64,000 bases of DNA from Bdellovibrionales bacterium (GTDB lineage Bacteria; Bdellovibrionota; Bdellovibrionia; Bdellovibrionales; JAUICD01), in contig CBDANC010000015.1 in the NCBI GenBank assembly GCA_965197425.1, positions 160,001 through 224,000 of the forward strand, given 5' to 3'. Below the pieces are notes generated by a model, which did no database searches, was not told where the DNA came from, and worked only from the letters and a program-made list of their open reading frames with translations. The position numbers were made by a program, and so were the translations under genes. This document shows, piece after piece, positions 3,654-52,296 of the stretch (positions are counted from its first letter, which is position 1; every line of letters starts with the position of its first letter).

Positions 3654-3750
3654 ATGTGATTGGATCAACTGTGAGGTCAAGAGCTGGGCAACCACTCAGT
3701 CAAAAAAAATGAACAAGTCCACTTATTTTTGACTTCGTTCGAAAAACCTT
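3654..3750 (+). repeat. Dispersed structured element copy R1
   Basis: 30-nt leader, CTGGGCAACCAC at 3684, stem AGTCAAAAA/TTTTTGACT, end CGTTCGAAAAACCTT. Confidence 0.85.
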
Positions 3751-4043
3751 TAAGTATTCTTACACAATTTATATAGATATCGTCCTAGTCTATCTGCTTC
3801 TTCTATTAGATTTTTATGGTTTACAATATTTAGTATTGCTTGCACTTCTCTGAGTGATCCGAGGCTGATTCTATAGAATTTTCTTCGATCTTTAGCTGTT
3901 GGTTTGGCACTTCCCTCTGCTAAATTGAGCACAATGCTTAAGATTGCTCTTTTGAACTGATTTTCAAGTGGTTCTTTTAAGTACAGGCTTCTAGAGTTTT
4001 TATAGAATTTAATTGCTAATTGATAAGTTTTTAATTTTTTCAT
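3750..4043 (-). CDS. Four-helix-bundle protein (23S rRNA IVP / TIGR02436-like), copy 1
   Basis: 97 aa from ATG 4043 after GGGAGG. QFKRAILSIVLNLAEG...FYRISLGSLREV signature. Confidence 0.9.
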   Translation of the reverse strand: MKKLKTYQLAIKFYKNSRSLYLKEPLENQFKRAILSIVLNLAEGSAKPTAKDRRKFYRISLGSLREVQAILNIVNHKNLIEEADRLGRYLYKLCKNT

Positions 4044-4088
4044 AAAAATTTTCCTCCCTACCATCTTTTGATGGGAGGAAATTTTTTT
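4044..4088 (-). promoter_or_regulatory. Hairpin occluding the SD of IVP copy 1
   Basis: mRNA AAAAAAATTTCCTCCC-ATCAAAAGATGGTA-GGGAGGAAAATTTTT-ATG. Confidence 0.75.
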
Positions 4089-4102
4089 GAAAAATTTAAA
4101 TC

Positions 4103-4173
4103 AATTACCAGATTCCAGATTGCCTGACTGCCTGCTTGTCAGTTTGCCGTAGTACCTGTTTGCCGGACTGTTT
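4103..4173. repeat. Degenerate 8-mer tandem array (consensus about GAYTGCCT)
   Basis: AATTACCA GATTCCA GATTGCCT GACTGCCT GCTTGTCA GTTTGCCG TAGTACCT GTTTGCCG GACTGTTT. Confidence 0.8.
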
Positions 4174-4233
4174 ATTTATGATGTTGCTTAGCAACGAAAA
4201 CGCCTTAGAGTTTGGAGACTTGTAGTTTCTTAT

Positions 4234-5493
4234 GTGTTACCATTCGACATAGTGGCTGTTAGATTTTTTTTGTGTTTTTTATTTTCTTTTCCTGTATTTG
4301 CTGGTTCTTTTGAAGATGCTATCAAGTACATAGAAACCCACGAAACCGTCCTAGCTTTAAAAGATAAGGCTGATTCGGTTGTTGCTCAAAGTTATATAGA
4401 TGGATCTTGGGGTGATCCTGTGTTTAGTGTGATGGCAAAAAATTATCCCAGAAGCCTTGATGGCGGAGTATCCATGATGACGGGTATAGATTTTAGTATT
4501 AGGCAAAAAGTTGCCCTAACCAACCGGTATAGAAATATAAAAAAATCTCTTCTATATCAGTCTAATTCTTTAAAACACGAGGCTTTGGATCAAAAGCAGA
4601 TTCTGATAAAGGTCTTGTGGGAAACTTTAGTTCAAAAAAAACAAATTGAAGAAGAAATCAAAATTTTTAAAGAAAATTTAATTTGGATTACTAAAATATT
4701 AGAAGTAAGTAATAAACTTTATGCTAATGGAACAATTTCAAGTCAGGCTATTTTAGATGTTCAAATAAGAAAATCAGAAATAGATATATTAATAACTAAC
4801 AAGGAATTTGAAATTTTAAAAATTGCTGACAAACTAAAATACTTAACGGGAAGTAATAGTATTAAAGAAGACACAATACCTTGGAATATTTTAGATAGAC
4901 CAGGAGGTTCAGATGATAATGAAAATAAAAAAGAGGATAGTGATGAAAGTCAGAACGAAAATAAAGATGCAGAGGTAAAGTATAAATTGGATCATAAGGG
5001 TAAGTCTTATCTAGCTAGGAGAGCTTCCAAGAACTTGTTATTAAAGGCCACAAAAAAAGGATTTTTGCCTGATCTAAGTATCTCTGCTGTTTACACCAAA
5101 AGACAGGATGAGGATTTTGTGGGGTTATCTGTTGGTCTTGCCTTACCTTTTGTAACACATAGAAAAGTAAGTAAGGCTTTATCGGAGAAGTCTTTATTGG
5201 AAAGAAAGTATCGGGATTATAAGAATAAAAGGAAGCTCGAAATTGTTCTTGCTAAAACAGAGTTATCTAAAATTCAAAAAGAGCTTAGCATTTTATCCGA
5301 TAAAACGATAAAATTTGCAACAGACCTTAGAAATATAACTGCAAAGTCTTATAGTTTGGGAAGCTCTAGTTATACTGAATTATTACAAAGTGAGCTTAAA
5401 TTGCAGCAAATGTTGTTAAAGCAAATTATGTTAGAGGCTAAATCCAAATTGACTAAGGTAGAACTTAGATATCTAGGAGCGTATGATGGTTAG
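4234..5493 (+). CDS. cusC: TolC-family outer-membrane efflux protein (CusC-like)
   Basis: Signal peptide, helical OEP-type repeats, first gene of an RND operon. Start uncertain. Confidence 0.8.
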   Translation: MLPFDIVAVRFFLCFLFSFPVFAGSFEDAIKYIETHETVLALKDKADSVVAQSYIDGSWGDPVFSVMAKNYPRSLDGGVSMMTGIDFSIRQKVALTNRYRNIKKSLLYQSNSLKHEALDQKQILIKVLWETLVQKKQIEEEIKIFKENLIWITKILEVSNKLYANGTISSQAILDVQIRKSEIDILITNKEFEILKIADKLKYLTGSNSIKEDTIPWNILDRPGGSDDNENKKEDSDESQNENKDAEVKYKLDHKGKSYLARRASKNLLLKATKKGFLPDLSISAVYTKRQDEDFVGLSVGLALPFVTHRKVSKALSEKSLLERKYRDYKNKRKLEIVLAKTELSKIQKELSILSDKTIKFATDLRNITAKSYSLGSSSYTELLQSELKLQQMLLKQIMLEAKSKLTKVELRYLGAYDG

Positions 5494-6850
5494 ATTGCTT
5501 ATTTGTTCAGTTTTGGTTTTTTCGACGACGACAGCTTGTACAAAAAAATCAGAACAAAAGGCATCAAATATTTACTACACATGCTCCATGCATCCTGAAA
5601 TTAGGGAGCCTAAGGCCGGAAAATGTCCAATATGTCATATGGATTTGGTGTCAGTTGAAATAGACAAAATAGACAAAATAGACAAAAAGAATAATAAGGC
5701 AGCTTTACAGGTTAAAAATTCTAAAAATAACGACGAATATTACTGCAAGAATTTTCCAGAAGTTAAAAGTAAGTTTGGAGGCGCATGTCCTGTGGATGGA
5801 ACTGCCATGATTCGGGATAAACAGACAGCTTCGGTTGAAAATGCCAAATTGGGAAAAATAGTAGCTCAGGTAAAACTTAAAAAGGCTCATATGAATCACT
5901 TTAAGCCTGAATTTTTTCCCGTAGCTAACATGAACATGGTAAAAAAAATTAGGTTGCTTGCTAGTGTGCTTAGATCGGAAGAGAAGGAAAGTAGAATTGC
6001 TGCAAAAGTGGATGGAAGAGTTGAAAAAGTATTCGTTAGATCCACGGGTAGTGCTGTTCGTGTTGGTAATCCTGTTTTAACTTTATATAGTCCAAAATTA
6101 ATAACTGCTGGTGAAGAATATTTAGTAGCCAGGAGAAGTTTTGCACAGAATAATTCTGCAGAATTTAGAAATATGTTAAATCAAAGTAAAGAGCGCCTAA
6201 AGCTTTGGGGAATTAAAACATTCCAATATGAAAAGTGGTATAGGGACGGTAAAGTTCCAAGGAAGATTGTTATTTATTCAGATGCCACTGGTGTGGTAAG
6301 GAAGAGAAATGCAGTAGTGGGAAAGTATTTTACCGTAGGACAAAACTTTTTTGAGCTATCAAACTTAGATGATGTTTGGGTTGAAATGGATGTTTATGAA
6401 CATGATTCATCTTTGGTACAAGTTGGTCAAAAGGTAGAGCTAAGTTTTGATGCAATACCAGGTGAAAAAGTTCAAGGTGTAATTGATTTTGTAAACCCAG
6501 TATTAGATCCAAAATCTAGAACTTTAAAGATAAGAGCTACTATACACAATTCTTCTGGTAAGCTTAAACCAGGTATGTTGGCTAATGCTGTATTGATCAT
6601 GAACATACCTGGAAATCCATTGGCTATACCTAGAAACGCAATGATTGATACTGGAAAGCGTAAAGTTGTTTGGATCAAATCAAAAGACAATAGCTTTGTA
6701 GCAAGAGCTGTGCAAACAGGTTATGAGTCTGATGGATATGTAGAAGTAAAGTCTGGTTTATCAATTGGAGATAGTGTTGTTATTGAAGGTAATTTTTTGT
6801 TAGATGCACAAGCCCAATTATTTGGTGGATACGAAGACATAACAGACTAA
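5483..6850 (+). CDS. cusB: Heavy-metal efflux RND periplasmic adaptor
   Basis: YTCSMHPEI...CPICHMDL metal-binding domain, LYSPKL, LKPGM. Confidence 0.9.
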   Translation: MMVRLLICSVLVFSTTTACTKKSEQKASNIYYTCSMHPEIREPKAGKCPICHMDLVSVEIDKIDKIDKKNNKAALQVKNSKNNDEYYCKNFPEVKSKFGGACPVDGTAMIRDKQTASVENAKLGKIVAQVKLKKAHMNHFKPEFFPVANMNMVKKIRLLASVLRSEEKESRIAAKVDGRVEKVFVRSTGSAVRVGNPVLTLYSPKLITAGEEYLVARRSFAQNNSAEFRNMLNQSKERLKLWGIKTFQYEKWYRDGKVPRKIVIYSDATGVVRKRNAVVGKYFTVGQNFFELSNLDDVWVEMDVYEHDSSLVQVGQKVELSFDAIPGEKVQGVIDFVNPVLDPKSRTLKIRATIHNSSGKLKPGMLANAVLIMNIPGNPLAIPRNAMIDTGKRKVVWIKSKDNSFVARAVQTGYESDGYVEVKSGLSIGDSVVIEGNFLLDAQAQLFGGYEDITD

Positions 6851-6863
6851 GTGTAAGGTATTT

Positions 6864-6985
6864 TAGTTATGGGATCAGTGTCGTGTTAGAGAGCTGGGCA
6901 ACCACGAGGCAAAAAATGCTCTGGCTTCACTTGCACTGCGTGCTTTTGTTTTGCTATTTCATTTTTTACCTCTTAGGAAGACCTT
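6864..6985 (+). repeat. Dispersed structured element copy R2
   Basis: CTGGGCAACCAC at 6894, stem GAGG-C-AAAAAATG/CATTTTTT-A-CCTC, ends AGGAAGACCTT 1 nt before the cusA ATG. Confidence 0.85.
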
Positions 6986-6986
6986 T

Positions 6987-9900
6987 ATGATTCAAAAGTT
7001 AATAGAGTTTTCGGTAAAAAACAGAATATTAGTTGTAATAGCTTTTTTGTTTATTGCACTAATATCTGTTTTTAGTTTTAGAAGAGCCTCGATAGATATA
7101 ATTCCTGATATAGGTGATAATCAGCAGATTATTTTTACTGAATGGCCGGGAAGATCTCCTAAAGATGTTGAAGAGCAGATTACCTACCCTTTGAGTGCAT
7201 CTATTCAGGGAATTCCTGGAGTTGAAGATATAAGAGGAATGTCTGCTTTTGGTTTTTCTGTTCTCTATGTAATTTTTAAGGATGACATAGATTTTTATTG
7301 GAGTAGAAGCAGAATTTTAGAAAAGCTATCTTTTGTGTCAGGGCTACCTGATGGTGTTAATCCTAAACTTGGGCCAGACTCTACTGGATTAGGTCAAGTT
7401 TATTGGTATGTTTTAGAAAACAAGGAAGACTCTTCGAAGCCAAAATCTCTTGAAGAATTGCGTAGCATTCAAGATTTTTATGTTCGGTATCTATTACAAA
7501 GTGTTGATGGAGTTAGTGAGGTTTCTAGTATTGGAGGTTTTGTTAAGGAGTATCAGATAGATGTAGATCCTAATAATCTATTTGCATACGATGTTCACTT
7601 TAGTGATCTAGTAAAAGCAATTCAAAATAGCAATATAGATGTTGGTGCTGAGGTTATAGAAGAAGGAGATAGGGAGTTTGTAGTAAGGGGTAAAGGTGTA
7701 TTTGAATCTATAGAAGATATTGAGAATGTTGTAGTTGCTGTTAAAAACAATTCACCGGTATTAGTAAAAAATTTAGCTAGAGTTGGAGTAGGCCCTGCTT
7801 TTAGAAGAGGTGCATTGGACAAAAATGGTGTTGAGTCTGTTGGTGGCGTGGTTACCATGCGATTTGGTGAAAATCCAGCAGAGGTTATTAAAGGAGTAAA
7901 GGAAAGAATCAAGGTTGTAGAGGACGGTTTACCTGATGGGGTTAGGCTTACGCCTTTTTATGATAGAACAGAGGTCATTCATAGTGCCTTGTCTACTGTC
8001 TATAAGGCTTTAACTTACGAAATTCTCATAACTATTTTAGTCATATCACTATTTTTAATTCATTTTAAGTCGGCTATTTTGGTTTCATTAACCCTGCCTT
8101 TTGGTGTGGGTATAAGTTTCATTTTAATGAACATGTTTAATGTAGACTCTAACATAATGAGTTTATCTGGCTTGGTCATTGCCATTGGTTCTATGGTGGA
8201 TATGGGAATTATAATGACAGAAAATATCTATCGTGGCTTAGCAAAAAGTAAGGAGGATCAGAATAAAGTTGAGGTAATTATAAGATCTGCTTGTGAAGTA
8301 GGGCCTGCTATGTTGACAGCTGTTTCTACAACTATTGTTACCTTTTTGCCTGTATTTTTTCTCGAAAAAAGTGAAGGGAAACTTTTTGAACCGCTTGCGA
8401 TGGCAAAGACTGTTGCAATGTTTGGTTCTATTGTAGTGGCTATAATTTTAATTCCAGCATTGTCCGTATTTATGTTTAAGTCCAGGCCCAAACTTGAAAC
8501 TAATGAAGTTAGTAACATAATTGTAAGGTGTTATAGGCCAGCGTTGAATTGGGTGTTGGACAACTATTTAAAATTTATGGCTATCCCTTTTGGAATCTTA
8601 GTTTTAGGTTTTGTGGCTTATATTAATATAGGTAAAGAGTTTATGCCTTCAATTAATGAAGGTGATATTTTGTATATGCCGGTTACCACATATGATGTGA
8701 GTATGACAAAAGCCAGGGAGCTTTTGGCCTATACTGATCAAAAATTAAAAGAACATCCATTGGTTGAAGATGCTATAGGGAAGTTGGGTAGGGCTGAGAC
8801 TGCGCTTGATCCAGCTCCTATAGCAATGTTTGAAACTTTAGTTAAGTTAAAGCCTAAGAGTGAATGGCCCTTAGGTAAGTCTATTAATGATATAAAAGAT
8901 GAATTAGATCGAAGTATGCAAATACCAGGACTTGTTAATGCTTGGCTTTTTCCTATTGAAACCAGGATAGCGATGATTTCTACCGGTATAAAAACACAGG
9001 TTGGGGTAAAAATTTTTGGTGATGACATTAAAACATTAGAGAGTTTGTCTTCTAAAATTGCTAACGAGTTAAAAAAGGTAAAAGGAGCTCATGGTGTATA
9101 TGCGGAGGTTGGTGTAGATAAACCTTATATAGAGTTTGACATTGATAGGGTTGCAGCAAGTAGGTATGGAATTAACACTGGTACTATCAATCAAATTATT
9201 CAAACTGCGGTTGGTGGTATGAGTATAGGAGAATTTTTTGATGGTAGGAAGAGATATCCTATTAGGGTTAGGTATAAAAAGGAGTTAAGGGATAGAATTG
9301 ATGAGTTAAAGAAGGTTTTGGTTCCAAGTCCTCTTGGTCAGCATATTCCTCTTAGACAGCTAACTAGTGTAAATGTGGTGATGGGTCCTGCCAGGATTAT
9401 GTCGGAAAATGGAATGTTGCGATCGATGGTTTTGCTTAATGTAAGGAATAGAGATTTAGTTGGTTTTGTAGAGGATGCCAAAAAACACATTCAGAAGATG
9501 GATATTCCAAAAGGTTATTCTATTGTGTGGGCAGGGCAGTATGAGGATCAGGTTCGTTCTAGTAACAGGCTCATGATTTTGATTCCTATTGTGTTATTGA
9601 TCAATTTACTGCTGCTTAATTTGGGGCTTAAGGGTTTTAGGGATGCTGGTATTGTTTTTAGTGCGGTCCCATTTGCTTTTGCGGGTGGTTTGATTTTGTT
9701 ATGGCTTTGGGGATTTAATACATCTGTTGCGGTTTGGGTTGGTTTTATAGCTTTATTTGGTATTGCTGTTGATGATGGTGTTATCATGATGACTTATCTT
9801 AAAAGGGCTATTAGAGAAAGGAAGCCTGCTAACTGGTCTGAGTTAAAAAATTGTGTTTTAGAAGCTGGGAGTAGGAGAATAAGACCGCTTGTTATGACGA

Positions 9901-10091
9901 CTGTTACAACTATTATGGCGTTGTTACCTGTTATGTGGTCTACTGGAACTGGTAGTGAGGTTATAAAGCCTATGGCCATTCCAACATTGGGTGGTATGGT
10001 GGTTGCTACGATAACTTTATTTATTGTACCTGTGGTTTATTCACAGGTTGAGTTTCATAAGTTAAAGGCTAGCCGTGACCACTCATCATAA
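6987..10091 (+). CDS. cusA: Cu/Ag RND efflux permease
   Basis: WPGRSPKDVEEQITYPL, GPDSTGLG, DPAPIAMFET, RRIRPLVMT. True start ATG 6987 (MIQKLIEFS). Confidence 0.95.
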   Translation: MIQKLIEFSVKNRILVVIAFLFIALISVFSFRRASIDIIPDIGDNQQIIFTEWPGRSPKDVEEQITYPLSASIQGIPGVEDIRGMSAFGFSVLYVIFKDDIDFYWSRSRILEKLSFVSGLPDGVNPKLGPDSTGLGQVYWYVLENKEDSSKPKSLEELRSIQDFYVRYLLQSVDGVSEVSSIGGFVKEYQIDVDPNNLFAYDVHFSDLVKAIQNSNIDVGAEVIEEGDREFVVRGKGVFESIEDIENVVVAVKNNSPVLVKNLARVGVGPAFRRGALDKNGVESVGGVVTMRFGENPAEVIKGVKERIKVVEDGLPDGVRLTPFYDRTEVIHSALSTVYKALTYEILITILVISLFLIHFKSAILVSLTLPFGVGISFILMNMFNVDSNIMSLSGLVIAIGSMVDMGIIMTENIYRGLAKSKEDQNKVEVIIRSACEVGPAMLTAVSTTIVTFLPVFFLEKSEGKLFEPLAMAKTVAMFGSIVVAIILIPALSVFMFKSRPKLETNEVSNIIVRCYRPALNWVLDNYLKFMAIPFGILVLGFVAYINIGKEFMPSINEGDILYMPVTTYDVSMTKARELLAYTDQKLKEHPLVEDAIGKLGRAETALDPAPIAMFETLVKLKPKSEWPLGKSINDIKDELDRSMQIPGLVNAWLFPIETRIAMISTGIKTQVGVKIFGDDIKTLESLSSKIANELKKVKGAHGVYAEVGVDKPYIEFDIDRVAASRYGINTGTINQIIQTAVGGMSIGEFFDGRKRYPIRVRYKKELRDRIDELKKVLVPSPLGQHIPLRQLTSVNVVMGPARIMSENGMLRSMVLLNVRNRDLVGFVEDAKKHIQKMDIPKGYSIVWAGQYEDQVRSSNRLMILIPIVLLINLLLLNLGLKGFRDAGIVFSAVPFAFAGGLILLWLWGFNTSVAVWVGFIALFGIAVDDGVIMMTYLKRAIRERKPANWSELKNCVLEAGSRRIRPLVMTTVTTIMALLPVMWSTGTGSEVIKPMAIPTLGGMVVATITLFIVPVVYSQVEFHKLKASRDHSS

Positions 10092-11070
10092 ATTCGTTAC
10101 CTAGTACTCTTTTTAAATTTTCTGTTTTTATAAAGAAATCTTGTGATAGGTGTACGACATCTTTTACTGTTTTTTGTGCAAAAACTTCTTTTCTAAATTG
10201 TGATGAATCCAGGTATCCTGAAGAAAACCATGTAACAAATTTTTTTAATTGAATTAAAATTAGTCTAGAGGGTAGGTGACATGTCAGTTTTTCATATAAT
10301 TTGTTAAGTAGTATTGTATGGTCTATTGTTTCGTTTTGTTTGTTGTGTAGTAGGTTGTATGACTCCATAAATATTGTTGGTTTTTTTAGTGAGCCTCTTC
10401 CTATCATGATTCCATCGCACTCATAATTTTTAAGATACTGTATTGCTTGATTAGCTGTGGTTATATCTCCGTTTCCTATTATTGGAACTTTGCTATTTTG
10501 TTTTACTAGTTTGATGTAGTCCCAGTTGGCTTTTCCCGAAAATGCTTGTGTTCTGGTTCTGGCGTGTAAGCCTACCCATGCTACGCCTTCGTTATGTGCA
10601 ATGTTACATATTTCTATTGCATTTTTGGATTGTTCATCCCATCCGGATCTAATTTTTATTGTAAGTGGTATTGATATGGATGATTTAACTTTGGCTATTA
10701 GTTTTTTTGTAAGGTTAAGGTCTTTTAGTAGTGCGGAGCCGGAGCCCTTCGAAGTTATTTTTTTAACTGGGCATCCCATGTTTATGTCGATGAAGTCATA
10801 TCCTAGTTGTTCTGATATTTTAGAAGCTTCTGATATTATATTTGGATCGTGACCAAATAGTTGAATTCCAATAGGTGATTGTGTTTTTTCAAAATTAGTA
10901 AGGTTCAGTGTTTTTTTGTCGTTTAGGGCTAGTGCGTGTGCTGATATTAGTTCAGTTATCATAATGTGTGTGTTTAGGTCTTTCATAAATGATCTAAACG
11001 CATTGTCTGTCACACCTGCCATGGGTGCTAGTACGAAGGGATTTTTTTTAAGTTCTGTTACAATATCCAT
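10069..11070 (-). CDS. dusB: tRNA-dihydrouridine synthase
   Basis: LAPMAGVTD, DINMGCP, HARTR, IGNGDI, MIGRG. Subfamily assignment tentative. Confidence 0.9.
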   Translation of the reverse strand: MDIVTELKKNPFVLAPMAGVTDNAFRSFMKDLNTHIMITELISAHALALNDKKTLNLTNFEKTQSPIGIQLFGHDPNIISEASKISEQLGYDFIDINMGCPVKKITSKGSGSALLKDLNLTKKLIAKVKSSISIPLTIKIRSGWDEQSKNAIEICNIAHNEGVAWVGLHARTRTQAFSGKANWDYIKLVKQNSKVPIIGNGDITTANQAIQYLKNYECDGIMIGRGSLKKPTIFMESYNLLHNKQNETIDHTILLNKLYEKLTCHLPSRLILIQLKKFVTWFSSGYLDSSQFRKEVFAQKTVKDVVHLSQDFFIKTENLKRVLGNEFMMSGHG

Positions 11071-11122: not shown

Positions 11123-11199
<77 letters not shown>

Positions 11200-17045: not shown

Positions 17046-17289
17046 TAGACACTTTTGTCGTATTACACCTTGCAAAGCTGGGCAACTCTAATACTGAAAG
17101 TACCTTGGCTACGCTTGGACTTTGTCCTGCGTTTCGCCTAGGCAACTTTCAGTTTTAGCGAAGACCTTTATGTAACGGGATTAGCATCGTGTCCAAAGCT
17201 GGGCAACTCTAATACTGAAAGTACCTTGGCTACGCTTGGACTTTGTCCTGCGTTTCGCCTAGGCAACTTTCAGTTTTAGCGAAGACCTT
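17046..17289 (+). repeat. Tandem pair of dispersed elements R3 and R4
   Basis: 17073-17168 and 17194-17289 are identical 96-mers with different leaders. End GCGAAGACCTT. Confidence 0.95.
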
Positions 17290-20153: not shown

Positions 20154-21302
20154 TTGAGTTTTATTAAAACAGTAACTGAATTTGTAAGCCCAAATTACAA
20201 AAAGCACCAAGGATCAATGCTTGATTTTCCACCTAAATCAGAAGAATGGAAGTACACTAGGCTTAGTGGTTTAAATAAGTTTAATCCAACAAAAGCTCTG
20301 AGTCTAAAGATTAAGACCAAAACTGAGAATCAAATTATTTTTGAAAACTCTAAATTAACATATAATACAGTCAAAGATATCGGTATTGATGATAAGCCTT
20401 CATCTAAAAATATATCATACAAAAATGATGATGTTTTAAATCAATTAAACCAAATTATATCACAAAATAGTTATCAACTAGATATTGTAAAATCATGTGA
20501 TGAGACAATTAATATTCATTCAGTAGGAGATGCAATATCAGGTTCTAGAATTCATTTAAAAGTTTCATCAAACACTAAAGCAAGTGTATGTTTTAATCCA
20601 GATTCTCTGGGTGTAACATGTAATGTTTTTGCTGTAACACTTGAGGAGGGTAGTACTCTTGATTTTTATAATGTAGAAGATATAAAGGGAACTAATCTTG
20701 ATCAATATATATTTAATGTTTCTAAAAATGCCACCTTGAACTTTATAAATGTTATATCTGGAGCAGGTACTTCAAGATTAAATGGCGTGTTTAATTTAGA
20801 TTTTGAATATGCTACTCTAAATCTGGGATCTATAAGTTGTATTCATGACAAAGCACATGTAGATAATCATTTTTACATACATCATAATGCTCCCAACACT
20901 TATAGCCAAATTGATGTAAGAAGTATTTTATCTGGAACTTCTAAATATATATATAATGGATTAGTTTTTGTAGATGCAAAGTGTGATGGTTCAAACTCAG
21001 ATCAAATAAACCAAAATATTCTGTTAAGCGACTACGCAACAGTAAATGCAAAACCTGAACTTAAAATACTTTCTGATGATGTACAGGCAAATCATGGTTG
21101 TACTACTGGTCGCATTGAAGATGAGGAGTTATTTTATATCTGCACAAGAGGTTTAGATAAAAAAACAGCAAATCGATTGATCCTAGATGGATATATAACT
21201 GGCATTACAAAAAAAATAAACTTTGGCCAAAGAAAATCAATAGATAGTAGATTATTAGGCATTTTAGATAACAATTTGAATGATAACACAATTGGTGTTT
21301 AG
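20154..21302 (+). CDS. sufD: Fe-S assembly protein SufD
   Basis: EEWKYT, KPELKILSDDVQANHG, operon position. Confidence 0.9.
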   Translation: MSFIKTVTEFVSPNYKKHQGSMLDFPPKSEEWKYTRLSGLNKFNPTKALSLKIKTKTENQIIFENSKLTYNTVKDIGIDDKPSSKNISYKNDDVLNQLNQIISQNSYQLDIVKSCDETINIHSVGDAISGSRIHLKVSSNTKASVCFNPDSLGVTCNVFAVTLEEGSTLDFYNVEDIKGTNLDQYIFNVSKNATLNFINVISGAGTSRLNGVFNLDFEYATLNLGSISCIHDKAHVDNHFYIHHNAPNTYSQIDVRSILSGTSKYIYNGLVFVDAKCDGSNSDQINQNILLSDYATVNAKPELKILSDDVQANHGCTTGRIEDEELFYICTRGLDKKTANRLILDGYITGITKKINFGQRKSIDSRLLGILDNNLNDNTIGV

Positions 21303-21423
21303 AAGGAGGGTTAGCAATGAGGCAGAAAACTGGGCAACCATCAAGCAAAAAGATGTCTTGGCTACATTTGGACTTTGTCCTATATTACGCCAATCCATCT
21401 TTTAGCTTGATTAGGAAGACCTT
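21303..21423 (+). repeat. Dispersed structured element copy R5, filling the whole sufD-sufS gap
   Basis: CTGGGCAACC at 21330, stem ATCAAGC-A-AAAAGATG/CATCTTTT-A-GCTTGAT, AGGAAGACCTT directly before GTG. Confidence 0.9.
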
Positions 21424-23239: not shown

Positions 23240-23464
23240 ATGGAAAGTGGTTTATAGTCCACATAAAGTGCTGGGCAACCATTCGGTCAAAAGATGTCTT
23301 GGTTTCACTTGGACTTTGTCCTGCGTTTCACCAACCCATCTTGTTGACCTCGTTCGGAAGACCTTACGGAAAGTGGTTTATAGTCCACATAAAGTGCTGG
23401 GCAACCACTCGGCAGAAAAAAGTAGGCAGAGCCTCCTTATTTTTTGCCTCGTTAGGAAGACCTT
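23240..23464 (+). repeat. Tandem pair of dispersed elements R6 and R7
   Basis: Near-identical 31-nt leaders (23240-23270, 23366-23396), each after ACCTT, with different hairpins. Both end GGAAGACCTT. Confidence 0.93.
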
Positions 23465-23589: not shown

Positions 23590-24795
23590 ATGCCAAAATC
23601 AATTTTAATTGTGGCCTTTACAGTGCTGGTTGATTTAATTGGTTTTGGAATAATAATACCTCTTAGTCCTTACCTTGCAAAAGAGGTTGGAGCAACAAGT
23701 TTTGAGATTGGACTATTAATGTCCATATACTCAGTTATGCAATTTTTTTTCTCACCCATGTGGGGAAAAATTAGTGATAGATATGGAAGACGACCAATAA
23801 TTTTAATCACATTAGTAGGCTCTTCTCTTTCACATATTGCTTTTGCATTTTCTACAGATCTTCTTTTTTTATTCTTAGCTAGAGGTTTAGCAGGTTTTTT
23901 TGGAAGTACGATATCCGTAGCAAGTGCATACATTGCTGATAAAACTGATGAGCACTCTCGATCAAAAAATATGGGTTTAATAGGTGCAGCATTTGGAATA
24001 GGATTTGTGGTAGGACCAATTATATCAGGTTCTCTATCCTACTGGGGGAAAAACTTAGGATTTAGTGATGCTTTTTTAATTGGCTTTCCTGCACTTGGTG
24101 CGGCTCTAATAGCATTGTTAAACTTTATATTTGCATACTTCAAACTACCAGAGAGCTTGGATACAAAAGATACAAGCCAAAAAAATAACAGAGATAGAGT
24201 ATTTATTTTTGATTGGTACTCACTAGTAGGAAAAATACTAATAGTATCCTTGATATGTGCTATTGGTATGGGACAAATGGAATCCACACTGGCTTTGTTG
24301 GTTAAAGAAGTATTTAATTGGTCAGTTATAAAGACAAGCTTTGCCTTTGGATATATGGGGGTCATTCTAGCGTTTTCAAATGGTGTATTACACAGAAAGC
24401 TCATACCAGTAATAGGAGAAAGGCTAGTATTAACTTTTGGGTTAATTTTAACTTCACTAAGTATGTTTATGATCTCTATTTCTGAAAATATACCTACACT
24501 ATCTGTTGCTGTAACTTTTCTGGCTATAGGCTCAGGACTAGTAAACCCTAGTATACTTGGAATATTAAGCCTCTCTTTTTCAAAAAAAAGACAAGGATTC
24601 ATAATGGGTGTGTATCAAAGCTATGCTTCATTAGGAAGGATTATAGGACCACTAGCAGGAGGGTATTTATTTGATGCTTGGGGATATAAATCTCCATACC
24701 AAACATCATCCATATACATATTGGTATCACTTATTATTGTACTGACTATCTACAAAAAAATTCCAACTAAAGGAAAAACTAAAACTGAGACTTAA
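23590..24795 (+). CDS. MFS transporter (TetA/DHA1-like)
   Basis: [34 protein letters not shown]. Confidence 0.9.
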
Positions 24796-25513: not shown

Positions 25514-25526
25514 ATTAAAGGTCTTC

Positions 25527-27437
25527 CTACTTATAACTTCTCTTTGTGGGTTTGATATATTCAAAGCTCAAATTTTCTTTGTGTAAAGTTGGATCTTTTT
25601 CGTTGTACTGCCAAGCAGAGACATGAGAAAAATTATCATCATCTCTTAGTGCTTCACCGTCAGGAGCTTGATACTCTTCTCTAAAATGTCCACCGCAAGA
25701 CTCTTTTCTAATCAGAGCATCTTTTGTCATAAGTTCTCCTAAATCTATAAAATCCAAAAGTCTTCCAGCATGTTCTAACTCTGCATTTAATTCGCGATCA
25801 TCTCCTACTATCTTTAGATCATTTTTACATTCATCTCTCAAATTTTGTATTTGTTCGATAGCTTTTTTAAGACCAGTTTCGTTCCTAGACATACCTACAT
25901 TATCCCACATTATGTTACCTAGTTTTTTATGAAGCTCCATAGGAGACTTACTACCATTGGTGTTTTTTAATTTTTGTATATTGTTGTTTACTAGATTTTC
26001 AGCTTCTACAAATTCATTTTGATCTGTAGTTATATCTTTTAGATCGGTATTTGCCAAAAAATTTCCTATTGTATATGGGATAACAAAATATCCATCAACC
26101 AAACCCTGCATCAATGCAGAGGCTCCAAGTCTGTTAGCCCCATGATCAGAAAAGTTACATTCACCTAAAGCAAAAAGGCCTTGTGTGGTTGTCATTAAAT
26201 TATAATCCACCCATAATCCACCCATAGTATAATGAACAGCAGGGTAGATACGCATTGGTTTATTATAAGGGTTATCTCCTGTAATTTTCTCGTACATATG
26301 AAATAGATTTCCATACTTAGCTTCGATAACTTCTTTGCCATCTCTTTTAATGGCATCTTTGAAATCAAGATATACAGATAATCTTGTGTCTCCAACTCCA
26401 AACCCATCATCACAAATACTCTTTGCAGCTCTTGAAGCCACATCCCTAGGCACTAAATTTCCAAAACTAGGATATCTTCTTTCTAAATAATAATCTCTAT
26501 CACTTTCAGGAATTTCCCAGGCCTTTCTTTTGTCGTCTTTATTTTTAGGAACCCAAACCCTGCCGTCATTTCTCAACGACTCAGACATCAAAGTTAATTT
26601 TGACTGATAATCGCCAGAGACAGGAATACAGGTTGGATGAATCTGTGTGTAACAAGGGTTTGCAAACAAAGCCCCTTTCCTATAAGCCCTGAAGGAAGCC
26701 GTAACATTAGATGCCTTAGCATTTGTGGAAAGATAAAATACATTGCCATAACCACCAGTGGCTAGGACAACAGCATGAGCAGAATAACGTTCTAGCTTTC
26801 CATCAACTAAATTTCGTACAATTATTCCACGAGCCTTGTCATCGATCACAACGAGATCCAACATTTCCCTTCTGGTAAGGATTTTAAGCTTCCCAGTGGA
26901 TACTTGCCTGGATAAAGCGCTATAGGCACCCAACAAAAGTTGCTGACCAGTCTGCCCTCTTGCATAAAAAGTTCTCTTTACCTGAGCACCGCCAAATGAT
27001 CTATTGTCTAAGTAACCACTATACTCTCTAGCAAACGGAACACCTTGAGCTACTGCCTGATCAATTATATTCAAAGAAAGCTCTGAAAGGCGGTACACAT
27101 TAGATTCTCTTGCTCTAAAATCGCCACCCTTAATTGTGTCATAAAATAATCTGTAAACACTATCACCATCATTTTGATAGTTTTTGGCGGCATTAATACC
27201 ACCCTGAGCTGCTATAGAATGAGCTCGTCTGGGGCTGTCTTGAATACAAAGGCAAGTTACATTATAACCCAATTCTGCTAAGCTTGCGCCAGCAGACGCT
27301 CCAGCAAGACCCGTGCCTACAACTATTATGTTAAACTTTCTTTTGTTGTTTGGAGAAACAATACTCATATTAAACTTATGAGTACGCCATCTGTCTTCAA
27401 TAGGACCTGATGGTGAGTGAGAATCTAAATTTACCAC
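25527..27437 (-). CDS. sdhA: Succinate dehydrogenase/fumarate reductase flavoprotein
   Basis: [29 protein letters not shown]. Probable GTG start at 27437. Confidence 0.95.
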
Positions 27438-28266: not shown

Positions 28267-29319
28267 CTATTCATCAAAATGAGCAGATCTAGTTTGCATT
28301 CCATGTTTTCTCTTATAATTACGAACCAATCTATTTAGATCAAAGGAATCAGTATTAACAGTCTCGGCAATCTCTGCTACATTGCCTGAATCCATGGCCC
28401 ATTCGATCATAGTTTCCTTATCTTCATCAGAAAATCTATCAAGAGGTTTATAGTTAGGTTGCGCATGAAGTTTGTTTCTATAATTATTGACCCAATTACG
28501 CAGGGTTTGTTCGATCATCCCCAAATATCTTGCAGCCTCTGCTGTATTGCCTAACTCTATAGCCAGCTGAATAGCAATGGCCTTTTGCTCCTTTAAATAC
28601 CTACCATAGGTATTATTATCAGTGTTCCTAGCATTTCTAATCTGAATATTTCGTATTTCTTCATGTTCACGAATCCAATTGTATAGAGTTGGTTGAGGAA
28701 TTTTCAATAACCTTGCAGCCTCTGTCACATTACCATCCGTTTTTTTTACCAACTTAATAGCAAGCTGACTTTGATTGGCTGAATAAACCCTGCCTCTTTC
28801 AAGAGGATTTGTAATACTGTTGAACTCAGAGACTATGCTTTCAATCTCACGATCACGAACAATACGAACATTGTAAAATTCGTCAATGAGAGCTTGAACC
28901 CTACCTACCCTATCTTTATCTGTATGTTCATAAGAAGAAACTATATAACTTTCAATATTTGTAACCTGTGAACCGTTGGTCTTTTCATTATCAATTAACC
29001 ACCCAATGTCAGCCTCAGGAATGTCTAATATAATAGAAACTTCGCTTATATCTCTATCAAATGCTTCTACCAACTCAATGATATAGGCTCTTCGTTCATC
29101 TGAATATCCGTTAGTGGAAGGAGGAAGCTTATTATACTCGCTAATAACATATTGTAATTCAATAATATAAGCTTCAAGAGCGGATGCCTCAGAAGATTGT
29201 GTAAGTGCATCCCGACAGGATGCATCTGACCCATTATTTAATTCTAACCCAGATGCATAGGCAGAAATAACAAATGTATTGGAAAGCACTAAAGCTATTT
29301 GTAATAAGTTAAAAATCAT
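28267..29319 (-). CDS. Signal-peptide protein with about four IS3-OrfA-like HTH repeats
   Basis: MIFNLLQIALVLSNTFVISAYA, then repeats such as GNVTEAARLLKIPQPTLYNWI and GNTAEAARYLGMIEQTLRNWV. Confidence 0.75.
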   Translation of the reverse strand: MIFNLLQIALVLSNTFVISAYASGLELNNGSDASCRDALTQSSEASALEAYIIELQYVISEYNKLPPSTNGYSDERRAYIIELVEAFDRDISEVSIILDIPEADIGWLIDNEKTNGSQVTNIESYIVSSYEHTDKDRVGRVQALIDEFYNVRIVRDREIESIVSEFNSITNPLERGRVYSANQSQLAIKLVKKTDGNVTEAARLLKIPQPTLYNWIREHEEIRNIQIRNARNTDNNTYGRYLKEQKAIAIQLAIELGNTAEAARYLGMIEQTLRNWVNNYRNKLHAQPNYKPLDRFSDEDKETMIEWAMDSGNVAEIAETVNTDSFDLNRLVRNYKRKHGMQTRSAHFDE

Positions 29320-44784: not shown

Positions 44785-44821
44785 CCTTGCTTGATTGCCC
44801 TACCACTTGACTACCTGATCA
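44785..44821. repeat. Degenerate 8-mer array downstream of IVP copy 2
   Basis: CCTTGCTT GATTGCCC TACCACTT GACTACCT GATCA. Confidence 0.7.
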
Positions 44822-45112
44822 AGCATTCTTACACAATTTGTATAAATATCCCCCTAGAGTATTTGCTTCATTTATTAGTTTTTGGTGGTTAATGAGATTT
44901 AGTATAGCCTGTACTTCTCTAAGTGAGCCTAAGCTTATTCTATAAAACTTTCGCCTTTCTTTATTGCTGAACTTTGCACTGCCCTCTGCAAGATTTAGTA
45001 CAATGCTCAGTATAGCTCTTTGGAATTGGTTTTTAAGCGGTTCTTTTAGATATAAATTCTTAGAATTATTGTAAAATTGAACAGCTAGTTGATATGTTTT
45101 AAATTTTCTCAT
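44819..45112 (-). CDS. Four-helix-bundle protein (23S rRNA IVP / TIGR02436-like), copy 2
   Basis: 97 aa, 75/97 identical to copy 1 by hand count. Confidence 0.9.
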   Translation of the reverse strand: MRKFKTYQLAVQFYNNSKNLYLKEPLKNQFQRAILSIVLNLAEGSAKFSNKERRKFYRISLGSLREVQAILNLINHQKLINEANTLGGYLYKLCKNA

Positions 45113-45156
45113 AAAAAATTTCCTCCTTACCATCTTTGATGGGAGGAAATTTTTTT
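45113..45156 (-). promoter_or_regulatory. Hairpin occluding the SD of IVP copy 2
   Basis: mRNA AAAAAAATTTCCTCC-CATCAAAGATGGTAA-GGAGGAAATTTTTT-ATG. Confidence 0.75.
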
Positions 45157-45169
45157 AGAAAATTTAATT

Positions 45170-47526: not shown

Positions 47527-50500
47527 TTAAAATAAACCTGGTATTTAAGATCCAACCCTAATACATTATTGTCTCTTTCATCTTGACTAATCAAGTTTGT
47601 GTCGCCTTCTTCTGGCTCTAATTCTTCATAGTTTCCTGTGATTGACAAATTATTGCTAAGTTTATATTCAACTCTCATATCTGATGTTTGGGAGTTTCCA
47701 AGTCTTCTGCTAAGTATTGTGCTTATTTTATCATTCCACTGTTTTTTTAGTACTATTTTTGGTGTTGATTCAATTACATTTTCTTCACCTGTCTCTTCCA
47801 TTTCAGTTGATAGTTTGACATCCACTCCAGTTTTTTCTTTAAGTACCTTATTTAATACATTTTGACTTAGAATACTTGTAGATACATTAAGTGCCTGACT
47901 TTGTATTTTAGTTTCAATGTCAATATTGTCGGTTTCATCAGTTACATCACCAACAGCTAATAAGTTTACTATATCGAAATGGCCCAAATTAGTGTTACTA
48001 GTGAATGATATGTCGGGTTCATCCACATTACCGCGTACATACATTGTTATTGTATGTTCCTTGAATGTGGTAGTAGCTTCTAAATATATGTCGGGGTTTA
48101 TTTCGTATCCACCTTTAAAGTCTAGTCTTGCTACATTGACTAAAAACTCATTGTTATTAATTTTTATTATACTATCTCTTTTAAGGTCTACTCTTCCTAG
48201 TAATTTTGGATAAGCAGGTTGTCCTTTTATATACAGTCTTCCAGTGAAATCTCCCTCTACCATAGAGTTGTTGATAATTGCATCATCATCAAACTCAGAT
48301 ATAATATTCATTTGTATAGGCCCTACTAATCTTTCTCTATAAGATGTGGGTAAAAATACATTGCTAGAGTAAAGTTCATTTGTTTCTGACTCATCAAACT
48401 CTGCTACAAATCTAACACTACTGGTATCATAAGTTCCTTCAAATAAAAATGGAAACCATGAACCAGATATTTTGACATTAGCATCTCCTTTGGTCTCCAC
48501 CCCCTCTGGTATATTTAGGTTTACATTTTTTAATTGGAGATCAATTTGTGTTGGAAGATTTTTAAGTCCAAGCAATGCAATATTTCCTTTAGCGTGAGCT
48601 GTACCCGAAGCAAAGTCTGCTGTTGCTTTGTCTATATTAATTTGGTTTTTAGAAAAACTAATCTGACCAAATAAGTTTTCAACAGAGTGAGGAATATCTT
48701 TGACATCTAAAAATCCATTTCTAATGGATCCATGTCCATTAAGACGAACATCGCCTCTTTTTCCTCTGAAGCTACAAGCTATATCAAGCATTCCTCTGAT
48801 ATTGTCTAAAAATGGGGTTAAAAATGAAAATAAATCAGGATCAATGCTCCCAGCTAGTGACATATTTAGAAAATTCTTTCTAGAATTATTGGAGCGAAAG
48901 ATTAGTCTTTGCCCACTATCATTGCCATTTAACGCTATAACTCCATTGGTCATGCCGTTATCGAAAACAATTTTAGCATTTTTAGCTACAAGTTCTTTTG
49001 AGTTTTTACTAATGTTCATGTCGAATATATCTATTTTTCCGTCTGCATTCCATAGCCAGTCAGATTTTGATTCAACATCTATATCTGTGGTTAGAAAGGA
49101 ACTATGTTGACTGATGTCAGCCCCAAAAACAGAAAGGTAGGGTGTAAAATCCCATCTATTAGCCTGTAAACTTAGTTCAAATGGAAAATCACTAGAATAT
49201 GGTATGTTGGAATATATCTTGAGTGAATTGTCACTTGTGTCCAATGACAAAAATAAATTGTTACTGGTTATTTGCATACCGTAGTCTATGCCAGGCATTG
49301 CTTTATTATAAGATCTTATGTCGTCTATTTTGCCATCTAGTCTTGTTGTGGGGCTTAAAACATGACCTTTCATTGTTAGTCTGGATGTATTTTTTCCCGA
49401 CAAATTTAAGCCTGTCTTTTTTAGAATTTGACTATCCTCTAACATAAAATTGTTGGCAATAGCCACCAAGTCTATAGTTCCATCAGGGCTACCAGTTCCA
49501 TCTAACTTTACTAATCCGTTTCTTTTTTTCAATTCAACTTGTTCTGTTTCTACATTTCCTTCAATTGCTTTAATGTTAAAAACTAATTCATCAAAATATT
49601 CTCCGGCTATAACTCCATTTTTTATATTGCTTGTAAGAGTATAGTTTAGGCGATTGAATTGAAGTGGTCCATCTAAATTTATTTTGGCCTGACCTCTTCC
49701 AAATGCATCAAATGGTAGCTTCACGATTCTGTCAAAAACATTAATAAGCTCTGAAGTTTCAAACTCCAAAACTTCTCCTTCCAATGAGATTGTTTTATCC
49801 TCAAGATCAACCCTAACATCAGCATTGTACTTTGATATATCTATTGACCCATTTATGTTATTAAAAAATAGAGTTCTGTTTGTATAAGAAAAATCCAATT
49901 CAGCATCATTTAACAAATAATCATCCAACCAAAAATCTTTTACTCCCAGATCTATATCAAATGATGCAGTTTTTGAATTTCCTTCAATAGCACCTGATCC
50001 TGCTATAACTCCCTCTAGTTTTAATCCGGCAACATTATTTTTTATAGCATTTAAGTTAAATTCTTCTGCTGCATAGGAAAAGTTAAAACCACTGTCAAAA
50101 TTTATAATGCCATCTGCATCTAGTCTGTTTCCATCGATATCTAATTTGCCGTTTATTTCAATTTTTTCTTTATCTATAGATAAACTGCCAAGCACTTGAG
50201 TGTTTCTTAATGCCACAATAGTTTTCTTTTTGTTATTTACAATAAAATCTGTTAGCACTAATGATCCATCGTTACATATGGTTATAAAGTTGTCGTACCT
50301 CATCTCACAATCTAGATTGCCCACCACAGAACCTCTTATTGGTGCATTAACTTTCAAGCTCTTCAGAAATGGGTTTAGGCTTAAAGAATGTATATCTAAA
50401 TTAAATCTAAGGGTGTCTTTTTGATTGGCATCTATAAAAGTAGTTCTTAGATCTGAGCCTCTATTTTGTAATCTAGCTCTTCGTATGTTCAATTGGTCGT

Positions 50501-51461
50501 TTATCCTAGTACCAGCAATATTTAATTTTCCTAAATCTCTCCCATCTATTTTTAAATCTTCAAAATCATTGTTAAATGACCAGTAAGTACCCTCGACATC
50601 ACTGCCGAAGTTAATGTTTGATTGTATATGTCCATCTAGTGTAGGAAGTTTTGCTATACGATTTGTTTTTAATAAAATATCTCTTATAATTTCCAGATTT
50701 GAGTCTAATTCTAATTCTAGATTTGACTCTAGGATTTTACTTTCATTAGCATTATTTACTTCACCAAAAATATTAGCATGTATTATATTATCTTTTGATG
50801 TAGAGAAATTTTCTATGTACAGCCTATCCTTAAAAATGCTAAATGTAGATAACAAATTTATTTTATCTAAATTTAAATTCAATTTTTGAATATTGAGATC
50901 GAATCTGGAACTTATATCAAAATCTATCGATCTAAATCTATGTTGAGCTTTCAAAAATATATCTGCTGTAAATTTGTCTTTTCCTCTTGTTACTTCAACT
51001 TTACTTTTTTCAAGAGTGATAGAGGCAATAGGAGTGACAGCTAAATATTTTGATAGCTTTGCTGAGTACAGTTCCAATTGCTTTTTTCTGGGTTTTAGCG
51101 AACTTCTTTTACTTGTTCTTTTAGTTTTTGGTAGTTCTATTGGAATCACAGCATCTGACGCTATAATTTTTATTAATCTTAAGTTCGATTTTCTAAATTG
51201 AAAATTAGGTATCAGAGATATCTGTTCTATGTAAGTATTTTTTGGCTGATCTTTTATATTAAGCTCAACTTGTTTTAGGTGTATACCTAATGGAAGTATG
51301 TTGATCTTTATGTCTTTTGGTATTATGTGAACATTGTGATCAGATGTTCTGCTGGCTATTTTTTTTGCAAGATAATATTCTAGATTTGGTTTCAGTCCTA
51401 AGAAGAATAGGCTAATTAACCATACTAAAACTAAAACACCAAAGATCTTTTTTTTGGTCAA
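47523..51461 (-). CDS. tamB: Translocation and assembly module TamB-like protein
   Basis: 1312 aa, N-terminal TM, beta-rich, DUF490-like C-terminus, adjacent Omp85 gene. Confidence 0.82.
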   Translation of the reverse strand: MTKKKIFGVLVLVWLISLFFLGLKPNLEYYLAKKIASRTSDHNVHIIPKDIKINILPLGIHLKQVELNIKDQPKNTYIEQISLIPNFQFRKSNLRLIKIIASDAVIPIELPKTKRTSKRSSLKPRKKQLELYSAKLSKYLAVTPIASITLEKSKVEVTRGKDKFTADIFLKAQHRFRSIDFDISSRFDLNIQKLNLNLDKINLLSTFSIFKDRLYIENFSTSKDNIIHANIFGEVNNANESKILESNLELELDSNLEIIRDILLKTNRIAKLPTLDGHIQSNINFGSDVEGTYWSFNNDFEDLKIDGRDLGKLNIAGTRINDQLNIRRARLQNRGSDLRTTFIDANQKDTLRFNLDIHSLSLNPFLKSLKVNAPIRGSVVGNLDCEMRYDNFITICNDGSLVLTDFIVNNKKKTIVALRNTQVLGSLSIDKEKIEINGKLDIDGNRLDADGIINFDSGFNFSYAAEEFNLNAIKNNVAGLKLEGVIAGSGAIEGNSKTASFDIDLGVKDFWLDDYLLNDAELDFSYTNRTLFFNNINGSIDISKYNADVRVDLEDKTISLEGEVLEFETSELINVFDRIVKLPFDAFGRGQAKINLDGPLQFNRLNYTLTSNIKNGVIAGEYFDELVFNIKAIEGNVETEQVELKKRNGLVKLDGTGSPDGTIDLVAIANNFMLEDSQILKKTGLNLSGKNTSRLTMKGHVLSPTTRLDGKIDDIRSYNKAMPGIDYGMQITSNNLFLSLDTSDNSLKIYSNIPYSSDFPFELSLQANRWDFTPYLSVFGADISQHSSFLTTDIDVESKSDWLWNADGKIDIFDMNISKNSKELVAKNAKIVFDNGMTNGVIALNGNDSGQRLIFRSNNSRKNFLNMSLAGSIDPDLFSFLTPFLDNIRGMLDIACSFRGKRGDVRLNGHGSIRNGFLDVKDIPHSVENLFGQISFSKNQINIDKATADFASGTAHAKGNIALLGLKNLPTQIDLQLKNVNLNIPEGVETKGDANVKISGSWFPFLFEGTYDTSSVRFVAEFDESETNELYSSNVFLPTSYRERLVGPIQMNIISEFDDDAIINNSMVEGDFTGRLYIKGQPAYPKLLGRVDLKRDSIIKINNNEFLVNVARLDFKGGYEINPDIYLEATTTFKEHTITMYVRGNVDEPDISFTSNTNLGHFDIVNLLAVGDVTDETDNIDIETKIQSQALNVSTSILSQNVLNKVLKEKTGVDVKLSTEMEETGEENVIESTPKIVLKKQWNDKISTILSRRLGNSQTSDMRVEYKLSNNLSITGNYEELEPEEGDTNLISQDERDNNVLGLDLKYQVYFK

Positions 51462-51916
51462 CTTTCCACCTTCTTATTCCATCTGAATAGTAGGGACTGA
51501 GCGTCTCTGAAATCAGGATTTTGGGATATTATCTCTGACATTAAACTTCTTGCCTTACGTTTTTTCCCTAATCCCCAAAGACATTTGGCCCTTGTGTATA
51601 TTACAGTTAGTATTGCCTCTGAGTCTACGGCATATTTTTCTAAAAGCACATCTGTGTGAGACAATGCATCGATGTATTGACCGTCTTCATAATAAGCTTC
51701 CAATTTTAAAAAATGTGAGGCCTTGCTATCCAATGTGTTAAGTATACTAAGAGACTCTTTGTATGCATCCATTGTGTAAAGACAGATAGCCAGATCATAT
51801 GCTGAGTTTGGATATTTTTTGACTGCACTTAAAATAGCTAGAGACAAGGCTCCATCGGACCCTTCGGGCTGCTCAGAGTTTGATTCAACTTTTAAAACTT
51901 GAGATTTCATAAACAT
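51458..51916 (-). CDS. TPR-like hypothetical protein
   Basis: Helical repeats, YTRAKCLWGLG...PDFRDA. Confidence 0.65.
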   Translation of the reverse strand: MFMKSQVLKVESNSEQPEGSDGALSLAILSAVKKYPNSAYDLAICLYTMDAYKESLSILNTLDSKASHFLKLEAYYEDGQYIDALSHTDVLLEKYAVDSEAILTVIYTRAKCLWGLGKKRKARSLMSEIISQNPDFRDAQSLLFRWNKKVES

Positions 51917-51994
51917 TTAATTACACAAAGACAATGGAACTTATCGGAAAAAATCATTGAGATTATGAGCATTTATACTACGAATTTTTAATTA

Positions 51995-52296
51995 AAGGTC
52001 TTCCGAACGAGGTCAATAAAGTGAACTTGTTTACTTTTTGACCTAGTGGTTGCCCAGCACTGGAACAAGATGCCGATTCCGTCACGCAAGGTCTTCCCCA
52101 ATACTGATTGAACCTGGCAACAAGTTGGCTATGCCGACTTTTGCCAGGGGAATTACGTTTCGACACAGTCACTTAAGAACCTGCCAAGGCTTCACCTACT
52201 TCTTTTTGCCGAGTGGTTCCTTCCTGGTGGATCTCACAGCTAACCCTGCTACTTACCTGGTTGCCCAGCTATACACGTGTACATCAAACTCATCTC
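51995..52296 (-). repeat. Dispersed elements R8 (51995-52087) and composite R9 (52088-52296)
   Basis: Plus strand shows AAGGTCTTCC at 51995 and 52088 and GTTGCCCAG at 52049 and 52260. Begins right after the efp stop. Confidence 0.88.

Follow-up and report, generated by a model that had tools for sequence, protein, structure and literature searches.

The stretch of DNA analysed here, 64,000 nucleotides (nt) long and hereafter called the window (G000:C15:160001-224000), belongs to the 1.60-Mb genome of a Bdellovibrionales bacterium (G000; 35% GC, 99% complete) and contains copies of a dispersed hairpin element. The hairpin family is real, genus-restricted, mobile and non-coding, and it is apparently undescribed; no description of it in Bdellovibrionota was found in the literature searched, the coverage of which did not extend to subscription journals. 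Its members are gained, lost and swapped between strains. The loop and pairing signatures of the rod suggest that it likely folds as single-stranded DNA (ssDNA) rather than as RNA, with the bottom strand being the folded one. The origin that we favour, with a confidence that is about evenly poised, is that of a non-coding modular hairpin that host enzymes copy into new sites at short microhomologies and exchange by gene conversion, with no transposase of its own being involved.

Each unit begins with a leader of ~30 nt and a head, continues as an imperfectly paired rod and closes with a GAAG-N3-4 tail, behind which stands TT(A/G). The layout in a same-genus sister species (G001; single contig, median amino-acid identity to G000 of 67.6%) matches this, with a leader, TTG-NNN-AAC head, rod, GAAG-type tail and TTA; paired figures given below without labels refer to G000 and G001, in that order. 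Exact heads in G000 number 142 as compared to 3.3 expected, and exact tails 194 as compared to 11.1, the family occupying 26.7 kb at ~172 loci, or 1.7% of the DNA, while the leader-head motif in the version proper to G001 gives 121 matches there. Although the layout is identical, G000 units used as BLASTN queries against G001 returned only 12 weak matches. Core lengths in G000 cluster at 61-68, 89-97 and ~130 nt, and the 121 parsed units carry leader A (68), B (25), C (11) or another leader (17). No native origin of the leaders was established when one was looked for. About 20 near-identical stretches of G001 (L020, L023, L034-L036, L044, L081, L083 and others) read like the lipoprotein signal-peptide starts of a paralogue family, and one G000 leader has 18 nt in common with them. 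The units stack in mixed head-to-tail arrays, contain smaller hairpins nested within them and frequently lack part of the leader side; since tandem neighbours are at least 95% alike in only 2/15 and 5/25 cases, the arrays are not explained by simple slippage.

A covariance model of the family matches two of the 151 genomes of the order, namely G000 and G001. None of 108 pattern matches elsewhere passes the model (80 listed viral loci among at least 120 stretches, and 28 other genome or metagenome loci), the patterns used for this wider search being narrow enough to miss diverged families, as the G000-only pattern failed to detect G001. A search of viral contigs for EF-P also gave nothing.

Selection on the structure, proposed in the initial annotation of the window, is supported by an alignment of 24 long units of G000 and 27 of G001. 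In this alignment 88.8% of cells pair, as compared to 27-44% in slid controls, and two-sided changes occur in 17 of 18 pairs, a figure reached in 0/500 shuffles; these values are to be read as support and not as a p-value, since the alignment itself served to derive the structure and its copies are related to one another. The foot of the G001 units covaries as well, with head GCAC accompanied by tail GGGC in 28/32, GGGC by GACC in 19/21 and GGTW by AACC in 11/14. The earlier suggestion left open whether the fold was that of a structured RNA or of an ssDNA hairpin, and the features of the long type appear to disfavour RNA and to place the hairpin on the bottom strand, i.e. opposite to the strand first read. 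The central 4-bp stem with its 3-nt tip could be parsed in 36/43 and 50/73 distinct long units; all 86 parsed tips are closed by C-G, and 85 of them read R-N-A on the bottom strand. The C(RNA)G type makes up 69/132 and 69/124 of the unit triloops, the background value, over 100 kb, being 18/669; a GNA/GNA internal loop is present in 37/43 and 46/73. Where pairing is broken, the top strand shows A.C in 57 cells and G.U in 19, corresponding to G-T wobbles on the bottom strand, and raw DNA folding energies favour the bottom strand in 69/96 and 90/97. Mini-hairpins of the GCGNAGC type are described in PMC13037366 as far stabler in DNA than in RNA, poorly bound by SSB and nuclease-resistant. It is because of these C-(R-N-A)-G triloops and G-T wobbles, which are the signature of DNA mini-hairpins, that an ssDNA fold is considered likely.

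The proposal that the units are non-autonomous mobile elements is borne out by empty junctions, strain differences and in-frame inserts. Among 810 syntenic junctions of the two species, 85 carry an element in G000 only, 17 in G001 only, 10 in both and 698 in neither, the junction detection patterns of the two genomes differing in sensitivity. In three sets of close strains (X3, X4 and X5, runs from two studies, a few percent diverged), the copy at the sufD-sufS junction (R5; Table 1) is lacking, and the contigs join position 21275 (21277 in X5) to 21428 via 12-14 other letters. The site reads TTGTGG when filled and CAATGA when empty, with a rearranged left flank, and the sufS site of G001 (ATG AAT) agrees with the empty state. 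The same three strains carry another leader in place of that of R3. At locus L292, one unit is missing in X3 between 14-nt identical cores, and the unit at C13:71578, which has an 11-nt duplication, is skipped in both X3 and X4. A nested module of 63-66 nt interrupts 4 of the 18 full-length four-helix-bundle paralogues while preserving their reading frame, and the target site resembles the start of the module itself. TTR is found at both ends of the units, and duplications of 8-11 nt in a few copies.

The ends of the units dock on codons. The tail TTA is the exact TAA of a convergent gene in 10/36 tails of G000 (p=2.5e-4) and 22/62 of G001 (p=6e-10), that is 32/98, against 225/3024 (7%) for a null of TTR sites on G000 contigs C12 and C13, which was used for both genomes and also takes in coding DNA that lacks annotation; the count is of terminal tails that have a conserved gene converging on them no more than 300 nt away. 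Orthologues of the stop-docked genes often have the same last codon with TAG or TGA, or are 2-5 codons longer, and several genes are 2-5 codons shorter where the TAA of the element lands. A further 18 units adjoin a co-directional start, located 2 nt into the flank in 13 and 5 nt in 5, and their GGAAG is placed like a ribosome-binding site. Some leader-C ATGs open mini-open reading frames (mini-ORFs) ending TTA-TGA over the next ATG (ATGA, -4 spacing; 8 copies), and open coupled frames occur in 8/18 start-adjoining units versus 23/103 others, a difference that is not significant (p=0.075). The HemB frame of G000 (C13:253091-254191) starts with ~47 element-derived in-frame residues that are absent from HemB of G001. 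Both orientations relative to genes are about equally common, and units occur inside core operons (suf, ribosomal proteins). In the ribosomal-protein operon region of G000 (C14:146-175 kb) units are numerous and invariably in sense orientation, most of them with leader-C-like leaders, and the G001 junctions there overlap or nearly do so. The docking may reflect insertion targeting or later selection, both of which fit the data.

The placement on genes also bears on the idea that the units are kept mainly as structured RNA, such as a terminator, an mRNA stabiliser or a coupled leader ORF, and spread via an RNA intermediate. Stop-codon docking does place the bottom-strand rod in 3' untranslated regions, the leader-C mini-ORFs reach over the next start, and a fixed 3' end with 5' truncation recalls retroposition. 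However, neither genome yielded a reverse transcriptase match, the mini-hairpin motif is the one reported to be far stabler in DNA (PMC13037366), both gene orientations are about equally common, the excess of coupled frames is not significant, and only 10 of the 112 occupied junctions are common to both species. No Rfam family was matched either, in keeping with the initial annotation, which did not recognise a named family: within the window Rfam recognises nothing but RNase P and a tRNA, and the best score on 10 element loci was 26.9 bits as compared to a cut-off of 93. Maintenance as RNA is thus considered distinctly unlikely.

A mobilising enzyme was sought in both genomes. The partner suggested earlier, a RAYT/HUH transposase, an IS110 transposase or a tyrosine recombinase, is encoded neither in G000 nor in the single-contig G001. 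Profile searches gave 0 matches to Y1/RAYT (PF01797) in either genome and none to reverse transcriptase, tyrosine recombinase, IS110, TnpB, rve or GxxExxY (PDDEXK_3). The GIY-YIG profile (PF01541; no cd10448-specific profile was used) matches only frames of 612-614 amino acids, which are UvrC-sized and presumably UvrC. DUF559 gave one weak match, in a 1408-amino-acid frame of G001, Cas1 was found in G001 only, and the single DDE_Tnp_1 match lies on the foreign-looking G000 contig C11. A Y2 search gave no shared candidate and carries no weight, its control having been silent too. Scans for HUH motifs, small basic proteins and genes flanked by units revealed nothing convincing in either genome. 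A mobiliser common to both genomes was consequently not found among the classes searched, with Rep, relaxase, HNH, IS630, IS256 and IS1595 left unsearched and the proteome only partly annotated. RecA, ComEC and RuvABC are present.

A serine resolvase (G000 C12:4669-5388; 77% identical between G000 and G001) is the one recombinase that the two genomes were found to share, in a lineage without tyrosine recombinase matches. Excision and insertion of units at the TT core by this conserved orphan, as a small site-specific recombination system, would agree with the TT(R) junction core and with the unit that differs between 14-nt direct repeats. The gene, however, lies beside dcd with no flanking units, and homologues of ~50% identity exist in G002 and G004, genomes without model matches. 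Enzymes of the serine recombinase type work on double-stranded sites and leave precise ends, so that the ssDNA triloops and the ragged junctions would stay unexplained. We therefore regard its involvement as very unlikely; the resolvase may have taken over chromosome dimer resolution, XerC/D being missing with all tyrosine recombinases.

A rather doubtful possibility, though the next most likely one, is that a dedicated enzyme, an ssDNA nuclease or HUH transposase (Ssn- or RAYT-like), acts on the units; it would have been lost, be supplied in trans by a phage or plasmid, or be too divergent to detect, and it would cut just 5' of a bottom-strand GGTC-TTC tag, the fragment being joined behind TAA or CAA. 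On the bottom strand the layout is that of a tag, a hairpin and a CCAG/CCAA tail, as in NTS/CGTC repeats; only one of the two ends is constant, the other being ragged, the head and tail covary, and the GGTC tag is present in 114/121 G000 units. A precedent is provided by SsnA, which according to PMC11893778 cuts ssDNA upstream of its repeat, at a distance of a few nt. The tag is nevertheless found in only 38/115 units of G001, YGTC in 0/121 and 0/115, and no replichore orientation bias was seen in G001 (37 vs 45 arrays, the GC skew being weak there). The UvrC size of the sole GIY-YIG match, the lack of Y1 and the lack of any unit-flanked candidate gene in either genome also count against such an enzyme. 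More far-reaching, and improbable in our judgement, is a new class of bacterial ssDNA hairpin element, of which the GNA triloops and the covarying foot would be read by an unrecognised genus-specific enzyme; the element itself would actively target start and stop codons and bring along its own TAA, ribosome-binding site and coupled mini-ORF, being active now in a 1.6-Mb genome without tyrosine recombinase, reverse transcriptase or HUH transposase.

Spread by host recombination is preferred, at the even balance stated above, because the ends are ragged and target-like and because no known mobiliser common to both carrier genomes was found. In transient ssDNA arising from replication, repair or ComEC-imported DNA, the rod would fold, mostly on the bottom strand, and its C-(R-N-A)-G triloops and GNA/GNA internal loop could cause polymerase stalling or exonuclease resistance. 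A free 3' end or an ssDNA fragment might then anneal through a match of 4-14 nt, preferably to a tail core already in place or else to a site of similar sequence, whereupon the hairpin would be copied in together with a few flanking bases, giving ragged ends, imperfect duplications and captured flanks. Leaders and cores could subsequently be exchanged by gene conversion. In a genome that has hardly any intergenic space, the surviving copies would be those with a TTA that serves as a TAA stop or with a GGAAG-N-TTATG that provides both the ribosome-binding site and the start.

Several observations weigh against this account, its strand assignment or its basis. The strand asymmetry of folding z-scores is slight (19/30 and 18/30), and the triloop is on the top strand in the short units of G000 and in the nested module (30 cases). 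The strain evidence consists of contigs at a depth of 3-14, some joints having unknown letters between them. The signal for a duplicated downstream flank is weak for G000 (mean 6.01 vs 5.68 of 12; 10/2000 permutations) and absent for G001 (137/1000 permutations). The constant tail junction (GAAG-N3-4, then TTR) together with the head-tail covariation of the foot suggests a sequence-specific protein, and the conservation of structure across 68% amino-acid identity suggests a binding partner. The absence of an enzyme today may also be compatible with one in the past.

The copies in the window are listed in Table 1. Exact CTGGGCAAC heads lie where the nine copies had been reported, at 3684, 6894, 17078, 17199, 21330, 23271 and 23397 on the forward strand and at 52049 and 52260 on the reverse strand, and with up to one mismatch the head gives 16 matches in the window as compared to a shuffle mean of 7.67 (16 reached in 0/100 shuffles). 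The head, described as invariant, is exact in these nine copies but not family-wide, that of G001 being TTG-GGC/CAC/GTT/GTA-AAC. The reported ends, GAAGACCTT in eight copies and GAAAAACCTT in R1, were recovered, as were the three stems given there and the inner pairing, TTGGC/GCCAA in some and TTGGT/ACCAA in others. The GGAC-TTT-GTCC tip, put forward as a common feature, is confined to 4/9 copies (R3-R6); R1, R7 and R8 are of the short type with 62-68 nt, and R9 is a 181-nt composite. Two members had been overlooked, namely a tail-only remnant and a variant unit. In G001, the element is absent from the R1 junction, and the R2 junction is empty with 46 nt. The convergent junction at window positions 24774-24782 is empty in G000, and its G001 counterpart (L023) has an element and a small extra ORF.

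Table 1. Members of the hairpin family in the window (window coordinates)
Feature	Position	Strand	Context
R1, short type	3654..3752	+	TTA of the tail (3750-3752) doubles as TAA stop codon of a convergent four-helix-bundle gene, 3750-4064 (-)
R2, long type	6864..6986	+	between cusB-like and cusA genes; tail GGAAGACCT-TT-ATG adjoins the likely cusA start at 6987
R3, long type, leader B	17046..17168	+	different leader here in close strains
R4, long type, leader A	17169..17289	+	tandem to R3; same core, different leader
R5, long type	21303..21423	+	sufD-sufS junction, adjoins sufS GTG; absent in X3, X4, X5 and G001
R6, long type	23240..23365	+	downstream of nfuA-like gene
R7, short type	23366..23464	+	tandem to R6; same leader, different core
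Tail-only remnant (TAGGAAGACCTT)	25516..25528	-	just before sdhB start, replaces the GAGG-type ribosome-binding site of G001
R8, short type, leader A	51995..52087	-	
R9, composite, leader C, nested modules	52088..52296	-	directly downstream of efp
Variant-ended nested unit	~57300..57445	-	head GAAACAGGC, tail CCTCACCTT

Comparison with known repeats reveals partial likenesses. The family resembles the CGTC/SRM-NTS (Ssn) repeats in its oriented tag, hairpin and short tail, its mosaic clusters and its occurrence in host-associated bacteria, and CGTC repeats, too, are reported to lack a dedicated transposase (PMC3733652, PMC11893778). The present rods are, however, 60-100 nt long with a 30-nt leader as compared to the 20-50 nt given there for the known repeats, the tag is GGTC/GGCC/GGGT and not CGTC, and no Ssn-sized or unit-flanked GIY-YIG gene was found in the two genomes. 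With the REP/BIME/REPIN (RAYT) group it shares intergenic imperfect hairpins, mosaic arrays, gain and loss between strains and occasional in-frame inserts (PMC6006769, PMC3733652), but the GTAG/GGAG foot occurs in only 1/121 and 12/115 units, a RAYT is lacking and the arrays are head-to-tail instead of inverted doublets. Streptococcal BOX elements, according to PMC3049150, are also modular composites with an optional middle module, non-autonomous, capable of carrying expressed ORFs and resident in a competent host; the comparison was by layout and not by sequence, and the present family is set apart in that its whole units form mixed head-to-tail arrays, its rods have GNA triloops and its docking on codons is exact. 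Mycobacterial MIRU, according to PMC12548453 (citing Supply et al. 1997), insert at start codons, where the ORF of the element is coupled to the gene with a spacing of -4 (ATGA); in the present family such coupling involves a minority of copies without significant enrichment, and more copies dock on stops, in the opposite orientation. The family differs from an IS200/IS605 derivative in that TnpA, TnpB and, in G001, a lagging-strand orientation bias (again 37 vs 45 arrays) were not found. Yeast mitochondrial GC clusters and fungal double-hairpin elements are also small mobile repeats of the hairpin type that are not known to encode an enzyme for their movement; they are organellar, GC-rich and unrelated in sequence to the present family.

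The variable-length imperfect rods, conserved ends and folded bottom strand also recall integron attC sites, and classical miniature inverted-repeat transposable elements may be considered along with them. RYYYAAC, however, is present in 0/121 and 1/115 units and GTTRRRY in 1/121 and 0/115, no tyrosine recombinase was found, terminal complementarity is at the shuffled level (4.8 of 12 matches observed vs 5.4 shuffled, and 5.7 vs 5.5), and units lie within core operons. Membership in either group is hardly credible. As the tests for tag, terminal inverted repeats, attC boxes and a partner gene failed, the family is placed in none of the known groups.

Some other features of the genomes were recorded. 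Four-helix-bundle genes (PF05635/TIGR02436) at window positions 3750-4064 (-) and 44819-45133 (-) are flanked by 7-8-mer tandem repeats (GGCAATCG and GATCTGG types) and an upstream hairpin. Pfam matches to this family number 19 in G000, 14 in G002 and 19 in G004, and there are none in G001. These genes look like a separate mobile unit without transposase; they were rejected as a partner of the hairpin family, with 4/20 matches near units vs 9.8% of random sites, 8-mer repeats of their own and no member in G001. Contig C11 of G000, which encodes the sole DDE transposase as well as a divergent extra copy of the ribosomal-protein operon, is probably contamination. Two Cas1 genes and two high-copy CRISPR-like repeats are located near 472 kb and 1282 kb of G001, and no Cas1 was found in G000. 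A 350-amino-acid protein at window positions 28267-29319 (-) has repeated IS3-like HTH_Tnp_1 domains without an integrase domain. A fragment at G000 C13:132116-132478 has an ELDESYFG motif, which we take to recall an IS1595-family transposase.

The family bears on the question of how small hairpin repeats without an enzyme of their own, such as CGTC/SRM, BOX and MIRU, spread. Here, two genomes nearly free of mobile-element enzymes hold a strain-polymorphic family in which the fold is kept while the sequence turns over, and the candidate movers, i.e. host recombination, one serine resolvase and an unknown protein, are few enough to be tested. The family also remodels the ends of genes in its hosts, by way of new stops, new ribosome-binding sites, the 47-residue extension of HemB and in-frame inserts.

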